Of a stretch of DNA of 64,000 bases, positions 1-21,000 are shown in pieces. Origin of the DNA: Syntrophales bacterium. GTDB lineage: Bacteria > Desulfobacterota > Syntrophia > Syntrophales > UBA2210. Position 1 is the stretch's first letter; each line of letters opens with the position of its first letter. Position numbers: made by a program. The stretch covers positions 1 to 64,000 of the forward strand of contig CAXXNF010000001.1 of NCBI GenBank assembly GCA_963666365.2. Reading direction: 5' to 3'.

Positions 1-3000
1 TGATGTGCTGGTGTGCGTCGAGGCGTCGGTGACGGTGAAGCTCCCTGTGGCCTTCTTGAAGGCGAGGCTCCCCGTCGAGGCTGACAAAGCCGAAGACGTC
101 CAGGGTCAGGTTCGTCATGGACCGCCAGCAGCACCCCCTCGTCGCCGTCGATGTCAAGCACCACATCGGCCGTGTCGGGGCCCGTGGCGATGGTCACGCT
201 GGCCGCGGTGGTGTCGGTGGTGTTGATCGTCTCGTCGCTGTTCACGAAGTCGAGGACGCTGTTCGGGGCCGTGAGGCTGCTCGTCTTGTTCACCTCTACG
301 GATAAAGTATTTACTGATGCGGTCAGGCCGTCGATCCCTACGAGACCGGCGCTCGCCACATCGGCCTTCAACGCCATGTAGTTCACGTCGTCGGTGGTCA
401 CTGCGGTGCCCTTGGTGTCCCCCACCATAAGGATGCCGAAGTCCACGCCGTGTGAGTGCGAAGCCGATGCTCCCCACGCCGGCGAAGGCACTATTCACAT
501 GACCGCCCACTTCCAGGTAGCTGACATTGGTCAGGGCGGTGGAGGTTGTGCGTCGAGGCGTCGGTGACGGTGAAGCTTCCCGTGGCCTTCTTGAAGGCCA
601 GGCTCCCGTCGAGGCTGACAAAGCCGAAGGACGTCCAGGGTCAGGTTCGTCATGACCGCCAGCAGCACCCCCTCGTCGCCGTCGATGTCAAGCACCACAT
701 CGGCCGTGTCGGGGCCCGTGGCGATGGTCACGCTGGCCGCGTTGGTGTCGGTGGTGTTGATCGTCTCGTCGCTGTTCACGAAGGTCGAGGACGGTGTTCG
801 GGGCCGTGAGGCTGCTCGTCTTGTTCACCTCTACGGATAAAGTATTTACTTCAGCGGTCAGGCCGTCGATCCCTACGAGACCGGCGCTCGCCACATCGGC
901 CTTCAACGCCATGTAGTTCACGTCGTCGGTGGTCACTGCGGTGCCCTTGGTGTCCCCCACCATAAGGATGCCGAAGTCCACGCCGGTGAGTGCGAAGCCG
1001 ATGCTCCCCACGCCGGCGAAGGCACTATTCACATGACCGCCCACTTCGAGGTAGCTGACGTTGGTCAGGGCGGTGGAGGTGTGCGTCGAGGCGTCGGTGA
1101 CGGTGAAGCTCCCTGTGGCCTTCTTGAAGGCGAGGCTCCCGTCGAGGCTGACAAAGCCGAAGACGTCCAGGGTCAGGTTCGTCATGACCGCCAGCAGCAC
1201 CCCCTCGTCGCCGTCGATGTCAAGCACCACATCGGCCGTGTCGGGGCCCGTGGCGATGGTCACGCTGGCCGCGTTGGTGTCGGTGGTGTTGATCGTCTCG
1301 TCGCTGTTCACGAAGTCGAGGACGGTGTTCGGGGCCGTGAGGCTGCTCGTCTTGTTCACCTCTACGGATAAAGTATTTACTGATGCGGTCAGGCCGTCGA
1401 TCCCTACGAGACCGGCGCTCGCCACATCGGCCTTCAACGCCATGTAGTTCACGTCGTCGGTGGTCACTGCGGTGCCCTTGGTGTCCCCCACCATGAGGAT
1501 GCCGAAGTCCACGCCGGTGAGTGCGAAGCCGATGCTCCCCACGCCGGCGAAGGCACTATTCACATGACCGCCCACTTCCAGGTAGCTGACATTATTTAAT
1601 GATGTGCTGGTGTGCGTCGATGCGTCGGTGACGGTGAAGCTTCCCGTGGCCTTCTTGAAGGCGAGGCTCCCGTCAAGGCTGACGAAACCGAAGACGTCCA
1701 GGGTCAGGTTCGTCATGACCGCCAGCAGCACCCCCTCGTCGCCGTCGATGTCAAGCACCACGTCGGCCGTGTCGGGACCCGTGGCGATGGTCACGCTGGC
1801 CGCGTTGGTGTCGGTGGTGTTGATCGTCTCGTCGCTGTTCACGAAGTCGAGGACGCTGTTCGGGGCCGTGAGGCTGCTCGTCTTGTTCACCTCTACGGAG
1901 AGGGTGGTCACTTCAGCGGTGAGGCCGTCGATCCCTACGAGACCGGCGCTCGCCACATCGGCCTTCAACGCCATGTAGTTCACGTCGTCGGTGGTCACTG
2001 CGGTGCCCTTCGTGTCCCCCACCATGAGGATGCCGAAGTCCACGCCGGTGAGTGCGAAGCCGATGCTCCCCACGCCGGCGAAGGCACTATTCACATGACC
2101 GCCCACTTCCAGGTAGCTGACATTGGTCAGGGCGGTGGAGGTGTGCGTCGAGGCGTCGGTGACGGTGAAGCTCCCTGTGGCCTTCTTGAAGGCGAGGCTC
2201 CCGTCGAGGCTGACAAAGCCGAAGACGTCCAGGGTCAGGTTCGTCATGACCGCCAGCAGCACCCCCTCGTCGCCGTCGATGTCAAGCACCACATCGGCCG
2301 TGTCGGGGCCCGTGGCGATGGTCACGCTGGCCGCGGTGGTGTCGGTGGTGTTGATCGTCTCGTCGCTGTTCACGAAGTCGAGGACGCTGTTCGGGGCCGT
2401 GAGGCTGCTCGTCTTGTTCACCTCTACGGATAAAGTATTTACTTCAGCGGTCAGGCCGTCGATCCCTACGAGACCGGCGCTCGCCACATCGGCCTTCAAC
2501 GCCATGTAGTTCACGTCGTCGGTGGTCACTGCGGTGCCCTTGGTGTCCCCCACCATGAGGATGCCGAAGTCCACGCCGGTGAGTGCGAAGCCGATGCTCC
2601 CCACGCCGGCGAAGGCACTATTCACATGACCGCCCACTTCCAGGTAGCTGACATTATTTAATGATGTGCTGGTGTGCGTCGATGCGTCGGTGACGGTGAA
2701 GCTTCCCGTGGCCTTCTTGAAGGCGAGGCTCCCGTCGAGGCTGACGAAACCGAAGACGTCCAGGGTCAGGTTCGTCATGACCGCCAGCAGCACCCCCTCG
2801 TCGCCGTCGATGTCAAGCACCACGTCGGCCGTGTCGGGGCCCGTGGCGATGGTCACGCTGGCCGCGGTGGTGTCGGTGGTGTTGATCGTCTCGTCGCTGT
2901 TCACGAAGTCGAGGACGCTGTTCGGGGCCGTGAGGCTGCTCGTCTTGTTCACCTCTACGGATAAAGTATTTACTTCAGCGGTGAGGCCGTCGATCCCTAC

Positions 3001-18000: not shown

Positions 18001-21000
18001 TCCGCTGACCCTTGCGCAGGCGATCCCCCTCTTTGACGGATATGGTGGACACTATGCCGGGAACGGACAGACTCAATGTCACATCGCTGATCGGCTCGGT
18101 AATCCCTGATATCCCGATCGGCTCCCGGGCAATGCATTCCCCGCCACAAGAAATTGCGATACTGCAGGCGAGGACACACAGCAACACAGCACGCACAGAA
18201 AAGCGCCTTCCTGAAATTCCACCTTCTTTGCTCATTATCACGACTCCTTGCTGAGATCTATTCCATGCATCTGGAGCAGCGTGCCTTTGACTGCCTCGAG
18301 CGCCACCAGCGCCTTTTCGACATTGACAAGACTTTCCAGATAATATTCCTTCGCCCTGTTCAGCTCTTCGTCCCGCTCCAGAACCAGCCTGCTGTTACTT
18401 TTTCCTGCACTGAGACGGGCCAGTTCGACTTCAAGCAGCCGTTTGTTGATCTGTACCGCCGACGCATAATTTTTCCCCTGCGCCACGGCATTCATTACAT
18501 TTTTAATCGACGTGTCAACGGCATTGGCAAGAGCCACTTCCGTTGCCTTCAATTCCAGCAGTATCTGCGCCTTTCTTTTTTTCGCCGCCGCCAGTTCGCT
18601 TTTTGTCTTCTTGCCCCCCATGAGAGGGATGCTGAGTTCAAGACCGACAGACCAGCTTTCATAGTCCATGCCCTTGGCCACATCCAAAGAGTCAATGGGC
18701 CCGTCGTTGTCGCGATCGAGCCCGTTGACGCCATAGCTGGCCTTGAGATCCAGCTGAGGCCATCGCTGATTTTCCGCGTAGGCGATACGTATGCCTTCCC
18801 TTTCCACCTTCATGAGTGCGGAAAGATATTCGGGGCGATTTTTTATGGACTTCAGATAACTGCTTTCGTACTCGACTGCCACCTCCCTGGCGGCGAGATT
18901 GTCCATGGCGATCACCATGCCGTCCATATCTCCCATGGGAAGAGACAACAATGTCTTTATATTGTTCACCGCCGCCGTCAGCTCCTGGCTCGCGGCAATT
19001 TCCAGTGATTTTCTTAGGGCCAGGCCGGCCTCCGCTTCGAGCACCTCGGTCTCGGCCATTTTCCCGGTCCGAAATCGCTCTTTGTTGTCTCGCAGGATAT
19101 CTTCGGCAATTCTGAGCGATTCGCGCCTCACCTTGAGCTTTTCCTGGGCCAGACACAGATTCCAGTATGACGAGGCGGCTTCGGCCACCACCTGAAGCAG
19201 CTCCCTTCGGTACCCCTGAAGGGAGATTGCGGATTCCTTTTCGGCCACACGGATATTGGCCATGGTCGTATCGACGCCGGCGTTTTTCAGGAGCGGCTGC
19301 ACGACGGTGGTTCCTACAAAGGTCTGGTACTGAGAATCGTAGGCATAATTATCCATCAGACTGTTTTGCAGCCGTTTCAAAGAATAGCCAAACCGCACCT
19401 GGGCGCCGGTGGGAAGCACCCCTTCGACGGCGGCGTTATATTCGTTATTCCGCTTCCAGTAATTATCGTTGCCGGAATCCATGAAACCGATGCTTGAATA
19501 ATCTTCCACTGTTTTGGGAATGTGGCTTTTATCATGAAGGTAGGATGCCACGAAGCGAGGCTCGAAAATGGACCCGGCGCTTTTCACGGCATCCCGGCTG
19601 ATGTCCCATTCAAGTTTCTGGTAGCGAATCCTCTCGTTCCTCTCGCAGACTCGTGCAATCAGCTCGTCGAGACTGAGATGCCAGTCCGCGGCGCCGATCC
19701 TCCCGTGCGTCGCAGGATCCTCCCCCCAGACAAGGCTGAAGGGAGATAGGAGGGCGGCCACTACAAAGACAATCACTGCACAGGGCCAAAACATTCTGCC
19801 TTTCAATTTAGTGCTCCTTTCTGACTGTTTATGCTTCGGCCTTCAACCGGTTCGCGCATAGGACCCCACGGAAAGGGAGGAGAATAACAGGAGTGTCATT
19901 CTCCTGTGGTGCGATGGTTCTATTTGAGTTTTGCAAGGTTTTCCTTTGCGATGTCAACAAGCTTTTTGCCTGTTGCCCCTGTCTGATTGCTTACAAAGGC
20001 AACATCCTCCGGATTCAGCGCAATCAGTATTTCGTAGGTGCTTCGTGCAAGATCGGCGCGCTCCGTGTTCTGATATACCACACCCAGGTTCAGAAGCGCA
20101 TAGGGGTTCTCCGGGTTTTTTGACAGTGCCCTCAGGAGATACTTCTCCGCTTCGGCATAGTCATTTTGCTGGAGGGCCTGGAACCCCAAGTTGGCCAGCG
20201 TGACGTCTTCCGGCGCCGGTACGGAATAGGGGGGGAACTGGGCAAGAATATCCTGTACCGCCTTCCTCAGTTCGCCGGAGGCCATATCGACATGAATGGA
20301 ACCCGATGCGGTGCCCCGCCAGAGCAACTCTTTACTCTCAGCCCGATATATATTAAGGGTCAGCATGCTGAGACGATAACTCAACGGGGTATAATCTTCA
20401 TACTCATACTTGAGCAGGATGTTAAAATCCGGTTTTTCCGACGACTCGCGAAACCCCTTCTGACTGAGTTGATGGTTGGCAAGAACCCTCACATTTTCAT
20501 CAACGAGCCTGTCCTGCCTGGAAAGCGCCACAATGGACGAAGGTGCATCCCACACATAGCACTTCAGTCCCGAAAAATCCTGGTTGAGGCCGTAAAAATG
20601 GTTAATGTCAGCCTTTTTCGCACAGCCTCCCGCCATCAGAAGGATAACCAGAACCATGATCGCCGGCACACACCGGGCGCCTATATTGAAACCTTTCATT
20701 ACTCCTCCTCCATATGAAAATGACCATTCCCGGACATCTATAAGCGTATGAAACTATCATTAATCATCGGACTCTGTCAACAATCTTTGACGCAATGCAG
20801 GTGATGGTCGTCACCTGCCAAAAACATCAAATAAAATGAAGGAGCGATTCAGATTAATGATTGTTTCCATCCCCAAAATGTTTTATGATTTTTACAATAT
20901 ATCCCTAATCAGAATGAAGGAGGATCTTCATGAAACTGAAGGACAAGGTAGCCATCGTAACGGGAAGCGGCAGGGGCATCGGACGCGCCATCGCCCTCGT

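Follow-up and report, generated by a model that had tools for sequence, protein, structure and literature searches.

A five-gene cassette that probably exports neighbouring giant surface proteins sharing one short N-terminal tag

Introduction

Kamneva, Poudel and Ward (PLoS One, 2015; PMC4452313) described a conserved 'secondary SecA_DEAD' locus that encodes a SecA_DEAD protein without the wing-scaffold, a Peptidase_M50/HlyD protein, a GAF/HlyD protein, an HlyD protein and sometimes an OEP, and proposed a secretion function for it in which SecA would be the ATPase and the M50 protein might form the pore. Going by the accessible text of that paper, this is the same gene set as that of the cassette analysed here, and the genome-wide survey's note, which had called the cassette so far undescribed, overstated its novelty because both the locus and its secretion role were published in 2015. 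The accessible text names no substrate, leader, PqqD/RRE domain or giant proteins, and the words 'giant', 'PqqD' and 'cargo' do not occur in it. Added here are the link of the cassette to proteins with a LEPR-XLL leader, which is new relative to the literature searched, the RRE fold, and a sister form that lacks SecA.

Type I secretion (HlyB-HlyD-TolC; LapB-LapC-LapE in the case of giant RTX adhesins) shares with the cassette an adaptor and TolC-type duct and RTX-rich, adhesin-type substrates, and both probably cross two membranes in one step. Type I systems have an ABC transporter, whereas the cassette locus has none and the genome has none of the HlyB type; they also use one adaptor rather than three, and the conserved signal of their substrates is C-terminal rather than N-terminal. 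Unlike them, the cassette has a membrane protease and a SecA-type ATPase built in. PCATs recognise an N-terminal double-glycine leader and cut it with the exporter's own protease, and have adaptor and TolC partners in Gram-negatives. The logic is that proposed for the cassette, in which the leader would likewise be handled by a protease within the exporter, but this protease is of the M50 and not the C39 type, recognition would fall to an RRE-like domain, the putative motor is a SecA paralogue in place of ABC domains, and the cargo is thousands of residues long rather than a peptide.

Accessory SecA2 systems (SecA2/SecY2 of Gram-positives; SecA2 of mycobacteria and Listeria) similarly devote a second SecA to special, often very large surface proteins. 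The cassette differs in that its SecA falls below all four SecA2 cut-offs, lacks the wing and C-terminal parts, is without a SecY2, and has adaptors and TolC as partners. With RiPP leader handling by RRE/PqqD-like domains and M50 leader peptidases, the cassette has in common the RRE fold and an M50 family match; however, its fusion protein stays under both family cut-offs (scores below) and is joined to a periplasmic adaptor, its presumed substrates are giant proteins, and modifying enzymes are absent.

Results

Five co-directional genes precede a giant gene

The window is the whole stretch of DNA that was analysed, 64,000 nucleotides at positions 1..64,000 of contig CAXXNF010000001.1 (C1); C2 denotes another contig of the same assembly. 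All five co-directional open reading frames (ORFs) listed in the genome-wide survey's note were found on the minus strand, with the same coordinates and domains. In the order of transcription the features are as follows.

18238..19806, minus strand: TolC-family outer-membrane channel, 522 aa (Pfam OEP 5.2e-39, in two stretches)
17366..18241, minus strand: short periplasmic adaptor of the HlyD/RND_mfp type, 291 aa (TIGR01730, 118 bits against a cut-off of 94.9)
15400..17274, minus strand: GAF-adaptor, 624 aa (Pfam GAF 1e-7, HlyD_D23 1.4e-17, HlyD_3 4.6e-14)
13242..15398, minus strand: 718-aa fusion (NF041824 3.1e-50; Peptidase_M50, PqqD and RND_mfp matches)
11254..13245, minus strand: shortened SecA paralogue, 663 aa (SecA_DEAD 1.5e-89, SecA_PP_bind 3.3e-28, P-loop_SecA 2.2e-57)
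10793..11253, no strand: spacer of 461 bp between the SecA-like gene and the giant gene, with no ORF that has a family match
1..10792, minus strand: 5' part of the giant gene, which runs off C1 and goes on at C2:1
10694..10759, minus strand: LEPR-XLL leader core of the giant, residues 12-33, FELEALEQRVMLSADPL (NF012209)
1..3736, minus strand: copies one to seven of a tandem repeat with a unit of 531 bp (177 aa), found by tblastn with a single unit

The end of the TolC-like channel gene overlaps the start of the short adaptor gene by 4 nt. By hydropathy the channel has a hydrophobic N-terminal signal at aa 1-29, and in an NCBIfam profile search it reached 105 bits against TIGR01844, under the cut-off of 225. 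The short adaptor, which also matches Pfam HlyD_D23, HlyD_3 and Biotin_lipoyl_2, has a signal-anchor or lipoprotein-like N-terminus with a hydrophobic span at aa 12-38. Pfam matches and hydropathy divide the GAF-adaptor into a cytoplasmic N-terminal part with the GAF domain at aa 201-325, one membrane span at aa ~358-384, and a periplasmic HlyD-type adaptor. ORF and family profile searches found no RiPP-modifying enzyme in the cassette locus.

The fusion joins an RRE-like domain, an M50 protease and an adaptor

The 718-aa fusion comprises a cytoplasmic RRE-like domain (aa ~12-106), a polytopic M50-type metalloprotease, and a periplasmic adaptor (aa ~447-716). Its previously noted profile scores were reproduced: the best family match is the daptide RiPP protease NF041824 (3.1e-50, 171 bits, under the cut-off of 300), accompanied by RND_mfp at aa 449-604 (4.9e-8) and by Pfam Peptidase_M50 (2.7e-6, 27.3 bits against a cut-off of 27.2) and PqqD (0.002). 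Against the YydH/LiaK family NF058609 it reaches 23.6 bits, under the cut-off of 225. The protease motifs are HEFGH at 211-215 and NPLLRFDG at 307-314, and the M50 residues H211, E212, H215, N305, P308 and D313 (HExxH, NPxxxxDG) are invariant in 37/37 homologues.

In the AF2 model of the fusion (pLDDT 84.1), the C-terminal part matches the MacA/MexA adaptor fold (E 5e-12), with MacA chains as its best structural matches. Structure comparison of the modelled N-terminal domain with solved RREs gave Z 9.6-7.1, the top match being a lasso-peptide B1 protein solved with its leader (Z 9.6 over 84/85 residues), along with TbiB1 (Z 9.2) and PqqD (Z 8.6); the model thereby supports a RiPP-recognition-element fold for this domain. 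Model topology and hydropathy place the RRE domain on the cytoplasmic side, with the active site of the protease turned towards that side or located at it. Several of the RREs matched by the N-terminus were solved with leader peptides bound. Elsewhere in the genome, a second M50 gene adjoins a YcaO gene in a RiPP-like cluster, which fits leader-peptidase work for this type of protease.

The LEPR-XLL leader opens three giant frames

The leader of the giant scores 28 bits against NF012209 on the protein (cut-off 17) and 35.9 bits in a genome search. NF012209 matches exactly three places in the genome, and a strict regex for the motif, run on the six reading frames, returned the same three, each opening a giant frame, in agreement with the three proteins reported before; this six-frame regex found no short frame with the leader motif. 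The tagged proteins are the neighbouring giant, a second giant of ~9,630 aa at C2:64780, and a 3,840-aa protein encoded elsewhere. Two of the three had been placed away from the cassette, which holds for the 3,840-aa protein but not for the gene at C2:64780, which lies in the cassette locus on the same strand because the giant gene continues from C1 into C2.

In 20 aligned leaders the core E-x-L-E-x-R is invariant, and conservation is confined to the leader core. The leaders of the giants have no hydrophobic core of the signal-peptide type; in that of the giant next to the cassette the largest 12-residue Kyte-Doolittle mean is 1.38. Put through a complex test, the RRE domain and the leader scored 0.32 against 0.00 for the best of 3 controls, with the verdict 'weak support', in a range (0.60 or under) that holds 18 of 157 solved complexes and both of the two passing mismatches; as for the mark itself, 116 of the 157 solved complexes reached it, as did 2 of 215 mismatched pairs. 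The runs agreed in at least 60% of contacts with a partner pLDDT of at least 42, and the pass may reflect likeness, because RRE-leader complexes have been solved for RiPP systems. The RRE domain may thus bind the leader: of the survey's claim to this effect, the RRE fold (Z 9.6) stood, and the complex itself fell in the weak band.

The giant gene spans two contigs

The ends of C1 and C2 overlap by 14 exact bases, and the same repeats resume from base 1 of C2, where tblastn located ~37 more copies on C2:3-19648, making at least 44 in all. Counting full unbroken copies, the repeats are 97-99% identical as protein, and four copies aligned as DNA have 98% mean column identity. Across C1 and C2 the giant gene has at least 16,650 codons. 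The annotated frame (2603/2605 aa) stops at 2975 because of a one-base frame break, namely one extra G in a G-run at window positions ~3078-3083 relative to three sister repeat copies, past which the repeats go on in another frame to window base 1; the length of 2603 aa first assigned to the giant was therefore that of a cut frame. Calcium-binding RTX repeats occur in the giants, 19 stretches of them in one segment, along with FG-GAP, PA14, cadherin-like and CARDB domains, which makes these proteins extracellular in type.

The SecA paralogue is shortened and the genome has a single SecY

The SecA paralogue keeps both nucleotide-binding domains and the preprotein cross-linking domain and is without the wing domain, the scaffold end and the C-terminal tail. 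Pfam SecA wing/scaffold gave no match in it at E <= 0.01. Its alignment to B. subtilis SecA covers residues 36-607 and nothing past ~607; by domain maps, the part beyond should hold the wing domain as well as the two-helix finger, which inserts into SecY. The start ATG of the paralogue's gene shares bases with the fusion gene's stop TGA (ATGA). The paralogue remains under every SecA and SecA2 cut-off, as had been noted, with reproduced scores of 607.3 bits for TIGR00963 (cut-off 800) and 421-527 bits for four SecA2 models (cut-offs 725-1100); likewise, a separate SecA does exist, as one further SecA_DEAD gene with an 876-aa open frame at C2:250391.

One SecY was found in the genome and no second SecY or SecY2, and the cassette locus contains no other candidate inner-membrane channel. 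The genome also holds no HlyB-type ABC exporter, as no ABC protein reaches the HlyB, LssB or PrtD cut-offs; MsbA, whose gene lies beside lpxB and lpxD, is the one exporter with a match across the membrane part as well as the ATPase part.

The fusion and the leader occur together across phyla

The close form of the fusion was defined in the Verrucomicrobiota sample by E <= 1e-128, a threshold between close and distant forms that was set after the bimodal scores were visible. Among the 251 Verrucomicrobiota genomes sampled, 21 have the fusion, 20 have NF012209 and 19 have both; 2 of the 21 have the fusion alone, 1 genome has the tag alone and 229 have neither (one-sided Fisher 2.6e-25, kin not being independent). 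In the genome's own phylum (401 genomes), the close-form fusion is present in 10, the tag in 10 and both in 7 (Fisher 4.5e-11), and the three close-form genomes without the tag (3/10) all have their cassettes on contigs of 8-9.5 kb. All 5 of 5 genomes reached via the fusion protein alone carry the tag.

In most cases the tagged gene lies directly against the cassette, with examples in G314 (frame of 7822 aa), G160 (1858 aa), G201 (19211 aa), G034 (9417 aa) and G255 (15080 aa), as well as at loci L007, L008, L011 and L012. In seven Verrucomicrobiota genomes the fusion gene and the leader share a strand, with the leader starting 2.1-2.4 kb further on, a gap occupied in L007 by the SecA-like gene. 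Genes for the GAF-adaptor and the SecA-like protein each adjoin the fusion gene in 15/15 close-form loci inspected. We could also bear out that three phyla, Thermodesulfobacteriota, Verrucomicrobiota and Gammaproteobacteria, have the cassette with a tagged giant after it. The close-form fusion and the leader have a near one-to-one genomic link, and co-occurrence and adjacency in two phylum-wide samples, together with the 5/5 further genomes, support that the cassette is tied to LEPR-XLL proteins.

Some genomes depart from this pattern. G124 and G147 have the tag, but a search for the fusion at E <= 1e-10 gave nothing in them. In G636 the tag is matched marginally (E 9.6e-4), and the one threshold applied to the fusion there, E <= 1e-30, gave no match. 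A SecA-like gene lies within 20 kb in 0/11 distant-form loci, which means that the machine does not always include the SecA motor. Distant-form loci L066-L069 adjoin substrate-like DUF4347 proteins, and those of L067-L069 carry LEPR-like leaders.

Discussion

We consider it likely that the cassette is a dedicated envelope-spanning machine for the export and processing of proteins with a LEPR-XLL leader. The cytoplasmic RRE-like domain of the fusion would capture the leader, a basic stretch followed by [F/L]-E-x-L-E-x-R-[ILV]-[LM]-L-S-A-D, which the fused M50 intramembrane metalloprotease would take off. The three adaptors (the C-terminus of the fusion, the GAF-adaptor and the short adaptor) would form a periplasmic tube docked on the TolC-like channel, and the translationally coupled, wing-less SecA paralogue would thread the giant by ATP, replacing the absent ABC transporter. 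Export would be guided by the N-terminus and could begin before translation is complete. What serves as the inner-membrane conduit and what the GAF domain does in the machine are matters of inference; one guess is that the M50 membrane domains form the inner-membrane channel, an idea already voiced in 2015 in the accessible text of PMC4452313.

The SecA paralogue might instead feed the giant via the housekeeping SecYEG to the periplasm, with the M50 fusion as a special leader peptidase and the adaptors and TolC crossing only the outer membrane in a MacAB-TolC-like manner. Its retained ATPase and preprotein cross-linking domains would suit this route, as would the single SecY, the locus without another candidate channel, and the MacA chains as best structural matches of the fusion's adaptor part. 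We nonetheless regard it as improbable, given that the paralogue ends at ~607, with the wing and two-helix finger presumably gone, that the leaders have no hydrophobic core, and that distant-form cassettes occur without any SecA gene; moreover, because model topology puts the RRE domain in the cytoplasm, leader recognition would precede membrane passage. LapA-type adhesins have an N-terminal retention module, which the position of the tag recalls, and together with the GAF sensor-type domain on one adaptor and a predicted protease with conserved active-site motifs this could point to processing or regulated release only, in which a GAF-sensed signal leads to trimming in the style of LapD/LapG on LapA while another machine exports the giants. 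Such a role seems very unlikely to us: no alternative exporter was found in the genome (HlyB, LssB and PrtD cut-offs unreached, MsbA the sole full-length match), a TolC-type channel with three adaptors is an architecture of export and not of protease control, and the RRE domain and the protease active site are predicted at the cytoplasmic side rather than in the periplasm.

We give hardly any credence to RiPP maturation or export, or small-molecule efflux, beside giant genes that are functionally untied neighbours. The fusion's best family match is a RiPP protease, the RRE fold is typical of RiPP enzymes, and adaptor-TolC sets often efflux small molecules; yet the NF041824 score of 171 bits is far under 300, the leader motif occurs in no short frame and opens giant frames at all three six-frame matches, it co-occurs with and adjoins the fusion across two phyla, and the locus has no RiPP-modifying enzyme. 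The export machine that we favour might also be in decay in the present genome, its main substrate gene a frame-broken pseudogene and the cassette left without a working neighbour. The repeat array of the giant gene has at least nine frame changes in the assembly, coding pieces switch among all three frames at C2:39.2-42.0 kb, and the copy in which the annotated frame breaks off truly differs at that point from its sister copies within the assembly. That break is, however, a one-base length change in a G-run, typical of long-read error, and at C2:42311 one contig from another run of the same sample has one G more than the assembly, so that the assembly contains at least one indel discrepancy. 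No break interrupts the five genes of the cassette or the frames of 9223, 7438 and 9652 aa, and we allow decay a small probability.

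Organization of the cassette and extent of the giant gene

On an open-reading-frame reading, window positions 19806 to 1 are filled by six large frames, all on the minus strand. Listed from 19806 downwards, they comprise the five genes of the cassette and a giant gene:

TolC-family channel: minus strand, 522 aa, Pfam OEP 5e-39
Short adaptor: minus strand, 291 aa, RND_mfp 118 bits (cut-off 94.9)
GAF-adaptor: minus strand, 624 aa, GAF domain (aa 201-325), a single membrane span (about 358-384), then HlyD domains
Fusion protein: minus strand, 718 aa, RRE-like domain, M50-type protease and C-terminal adaptor
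SecA-like protein: minus strand, 663 aa
Giant gene: minus strand, sixth large frame, running to window base 1

The channel and short-adaptor genes share a 4 nt overlap, the GAF-adaptor stop and the fusion start lie 1 base apart, and the fusion TGA and the SecA-like ATG overlap as ATGA; a 461-bp spacer follows the SecA-like gene ahead of the giant gene. The channel scored below the narrower TolC model TIGR01844 (105 against a cut-off of 225). The channel gene is preceded, at a distance of 114 bp, by a lipoprotein-like gene with DUF4136 and TPR domains (window 19920-20699, minus strand); a search of 26 related loci found no relative of it, so it probably does not belong to the cassette. DUF3467 had no match anywhere in the source genome.

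The genome-wide survey's note was sound on the genes and on the family scores of the cassette proteins, which returned the same values on re-search, and needed correction on the length of the giant and the place of the second giant. The length of 2603 aa that it gave results from a one-base difference in a run of G, and the same repeat goes on in another frame. The 2605-aa frame stops at 2975 owing to one repeat copy that reads GGTGGGGGGAC in place of the GGTGGGGGAC of three sister copies; at window ~3078-3083 there are six G as against five in the three sister copies, and the extra G points either to an error in sequencing the homopolymer or to a site of slippage. The 177-aa repeat persists in the other frame to window base 1 (window 1-3736). 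The source genome is in two contigs, this one (C1) and C2, which abut inside the 531-bp tandem repeat: read in reverse complement, the beginning of C1 has 14 exact bases in common with the beginning of C2. About 37 further copies carry the array on to C2:19648, after which the frame stays open to C2:39175. The gene at the contig end is a single giant, 49,953 bases or at least 16,650 codons long. It holds at least 44 repeat copies, a count that leaves aside copies lost at the contig break, and full unbroken copies are 97-99% identical.

From there, at C2:39.2-42.0 kb (39175-42060, locus L079), coding pieces switch among all three frames for about 3 kb, followed by a 7438-aa frame (C2:42060-64373). 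The 7438-aa frame and the one that ends at C2:39175 may belong to a single gene of about 25,000 codons. Over C2:38.5-43.0 kb, coverage by public contigs from four runs is limited to small pieces, and one such contig (run X2) has an extra G at C2:42311 relative to the assembly. The second LEPR-XLL gene, which had been placed elsewhere in the genome, belongs to the same locus and strand as the first giant, starting at C2:64780 with a 9652-aa open frame. Together, the cassette and giants take up about 116 kb of the 4.0-Mb genome. Because the giants contain RTX calcium-binding repeats and FG-GAP, PA14, P-domain, laminin-G and cadherin-like domains, we consider them to be extracellular. The third LEPR-XLL protein (3840 aa, with 19 CARDB stretches and laminin-G) is encoded at C2:2367392-2378911 (L077:1393-12912), alone among metabolic genes between those for an AMP-binding enzyme and a CARDB protein, and looks like a substrate encoded apart from the machine.

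The LEPR-XLL leader and its distribution with the fusion protein

The NCBIfam LEPR-XLL model (NF012209) matches the giant at its N-terminus (residues 12-33, 28 bits against a cut-off of 17) and identifies three proteins in the source genome. A search of all six genomic frames for the strict leader motif gave 3 occurrences, each of them opening a giant frame. Twenty aligned leaders begin with a basic stretch and share an invariant E-x-L-E-x-R core, beyond which there is no conservation, and a hydrophobic core of the signal-peptide type is absent from all leaders checked.

Relatives of the fusion protein fall into a close and a distant form. Among 251 genomes of Verrucomicrobiota, the close form (E <= 1e-128, the next best match being 2.6e-73) was found in 21 and the tag, that is, a match to NF012209, in 20; 19 genomes had both, two the fusion alone, one the tag alone and 229 neither. 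For 401 genomes of the organism's own phylum, the corresponding figures were 10 with the close form (E <= 1e-100), 10 with the tag and 7 with both. The three close-form genomes lacking the tag in this sample carry the cassette on contigs of 8-9.5 kb, and the tagged genomes lacking the close form comprise two with no fusion match (G124 and G147) and one with the distant form (G295). Fisher's test gave 2.6e-25 for Verrucomicrobiota and 4.5e-11 for the own phylum, both overstated given that kin are not independent, and the threshold between close and distant forms was chosen once the bimodal scores were known. The tag was also present in 5/5 genomes picked via the fusion protein alone.

A tagged frame of 1858 to 19,211 aa adjoins the cassette directly in five other genomes (G314, G160, G201, G034 and G255). 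Of the 19 Verrucomicrobiota genomes with both, 10 have a tagged gene no more than 5 kb from the fusion gene, and in 7 of those 10 the leader starts 2.1-2.4 kb downstream of the fusion gene on the same strand, a spacing that at locus L007 is occupied by the SecA-like gene. Most tagged frames in this sample (24/34) exceed 3,000 aa.

Domain architecture of the fusion protein

Modelled alone, the N-terminal domain of the fusion protein (pLDDT 81.4) is predicted to form strands at residues 27-33, 36-43 and 48-52 and then helices at 54-62, 69-79 and 87-99, which is the winged-helix order of an RRE, a three-stranded sheet followed by three helices. Its best superposition in VIA-align was with a lasso-peptide B1 protein solved with leader (Z 9.6, rmsd 2.9 Å, 84/85 residues), and further Z-scores were 9.2 for TbiB1, 8.6 for PqqD, 8.5 for TigE, 7.8 for ThcOx and 7.1 for the PbtF RRE. 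The same RRE proteins were the top Foldseek matches to the domain alone, only at E 0.04-0.3, with nothing at E <= 0.001. By sequence, the fusion falls outside Pfam PqqD (18.8 bits against 23.4, E 0.002), and we assign the domain to the RREs because of the make-up of the Foldseek list together with the VIA-align Z-scores.

When the RRE domain and the leader were paired in a complex test, binding received weak support, with a score of 0.32 against 0.00 for the best control, a result that solved RRE-leader complexes may colour. Of 157 solved complexes, 116 reached this mark, as did 2 of 215 mismatched pairs, with scores of 0.60 or below accounting for only 18 of the 157 solved complexes and for both mismatches. 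Contacts agreed between runs to at least 60%, and partner pLDDT was at least 42.

Searched with the model of the whole 718-aa protein (AF2, pLDDT 84.1), Foldseek returned adaptor proteins only, the C-terminal third matching MacA, MexA and AcrA with E down to 5e-12. Hydrophobic spans occupy aa 149-452, and the M50 arrangement of HExxH and a downstream NPxxxxDG within membrane spans is present; H211, E212, H215, N305, P308 and D313 are invariant in 37/37 fusion homologues of 23-85% identity. The score for Pfam Peptidase_M50 was 27.3 bits against a cut-off of 27.2, and that for the daptide intramembrane metalloprotease model NF041824 was 171.4 bits, under its cut-off of 300. At E <= 1e-30, 4,374 representatives from clustering at 50% identity match the fusion, and these are drawn from several phyla.

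The SecA paralogue and a sister form that lacks it

The SecA paralogue, one of two SecA_DEAD genes in the genome, keeps both ATPase domains and the cross-linking domain, gave no wing/scaffold match in Pfam, and aligns to residues 36-607 only of B. subtilis SecA. It scored under the cut-off of the housekeeping SecA model TIGR00963 (607.3 bits against 800, with the best stretch at model positions 5-473 of 787) and likewise under those of the accessory SecA2 models TIGR03714 (493 of 930 bits), TIGR04221 (452 of 725), TIGR04397 (527 of 1085) and NF012136 (421 of 1100).

The distant form of the fusion, of 23-32% identity, was examined at 11 loci (L065-L075) in other genomes of the phylum. These sister loci hold a TolC-type gene, a short adaptor and an adaptor of 490-620 aa without a Pfam GAF match, and in 0/11 was a SecA-like gene found within 20 kb. 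The SecA motor is an addition to the machine and not its core. Four of the loci (L066-L069) adjoin substrate-like proteins of ~980 to >2,000 aa with DUF4347 at about residues 80-230, followed in L068 and L069 by FG-GAP and cadherin-type domains. The proteins at L067-L069 begin with a variant leader, L-E-x-L-E-[ED]-R-I-V-[LM]-D-A, which scored 13.2, 16.5 and 20.1 bits on NF012209, respectively. Leader type therefore tracks fusion type, which fits specific recognition.

Relation to known secretion systems and proposed mechanism

Little is understood of how the largest bacterial proteins exit the cell. In the classical type I route, transport has to wait until a C-terminal signal is available, a poor fit for chains of at least 16,000 residues. 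Like type I systems, the cassette has membrane-fusion adaptors and a TolC-family outer-membrane factor; unlike them, it comes without a dedicated ABC transporter of the HlyB/PrtD/LssB type. None was found in the locus, and the genome's best match to such transporters (359-360 bits against 725.55) is MsbA, the only ABC exporter in the genome matched across both membrane and ATPase parts (633 bits against 602), whose gene adjoins lpxB and lpxD. Type I substrates have a C-terminal, uncleaved signal; the giants carry RTX repeats, and the conserved signal found in them is N-terminal. The accessory SecA2/SecY2 system has a second SecY, whereas the source genome, which is 94% complete, yielded one SecY match and no second. 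Judged by sequence and structural models, the system would best be called a type-I-like secretion variant.

On the reading that fits best, it would be a type-I-like duct with three replacements. The RRE-M50-adaptor fusion, joined in the close form by a wing-less SecA, would stand in for the ABC transporter, an N-terminal leader would take the place of the C-terminal signal, and the leader would probably be removed where a type I substrate stays uncleaved. Four elements of this scheme are inferences: leader cleavage, the conduit, which way transport runs and what the GAF domain does. We also entertain, tentatively and as the less probable case, a distinct route in which a hexamer-like ring of fusions and GAF-adaptors would form an inner-membrane gate and periplasmic tube. 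The wing-less SecA, seated on this ring, might then thread the nascent chain N-terminus first, possibly co-translationally, through TolC, and the leader might be clipped in transit; the sister form would pass leader-DUF4347 cargo of ~1,000-2,000 residues without a dedicated motor. If true, this scheme would explain the exit of proteins of 10,000-25,000 residues that are never free in the cytoplasm.

The cassette, which the survey's note had called so far undescribed, is one more instance of a locus that Kamneva, Poudel and Ward described in 2015 (PMC4452313), and the interpretation in that note is partly supported. In their paper, the same locus was recorded in five phyla together with the loss of the wing-scaffold region, and secretion was proposed, in which SecA would act as ATPase and the M50 protein might form the pore. 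Genes META1p2399-2402 of the culturable Methylobacterium extorquens AM1 are named there. Here too, a second SecA_DEAD protein lacking the wing-scaffold stands beside a housekeeping SecA, and the Peptidase_M50/HlyD, GAF/HlyD, HlyD and optional OEP genes of that locus are all four present, adjacent and co-directional. Their text mentions neither giant proteins nor PqqD, and neither a cargo nor a leader. In literature outside subscription journals, we found no work tying the cassette, the RRE domain or LEPR-XLL together; titles and abstracts yielded incidental mentions only of LEPR-XLL, and titles alone yielded nothing on secretion for DUF4347. What is added to the literature found is the assignment of a cargo, the RRE domain and the sister form without SecA. 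If true, an orphan NCBI N-terminal domain, LEPR-XLL, would be a secretion leader, a gene cluster without a function since 2015 would gain its cargo, a SecA paralogue would be at work outside the Sec channel, and the leader-recognition logic of peptide natural products would be used on giant proteins.

According to passages of a preprint (10.64898/2026.03.19.712371), the giant symbiosis proteins Cag_663 and Cag_665 of Chlorobium chlorochromatii have no known export signal and lie on either side of a TolC-like gene, in a genome with a recently acquired secA. As a possible case of LEPR-XLL and the cassette, these giants are a lead.

Elsewhere in the source genome, a second M50-type gene (569 aa) directly adjoins a YcaO cyclodehydratase gene (738 aa) at C2:1842205-1846112 (L078:4205-8112), with a weak radical-SAM/B12-binding match nearby. 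The pair has the look of a RiPP-type cluster with no relation to the cassette, and shows that this M50 protease type occurs in a RiPP-like setting.
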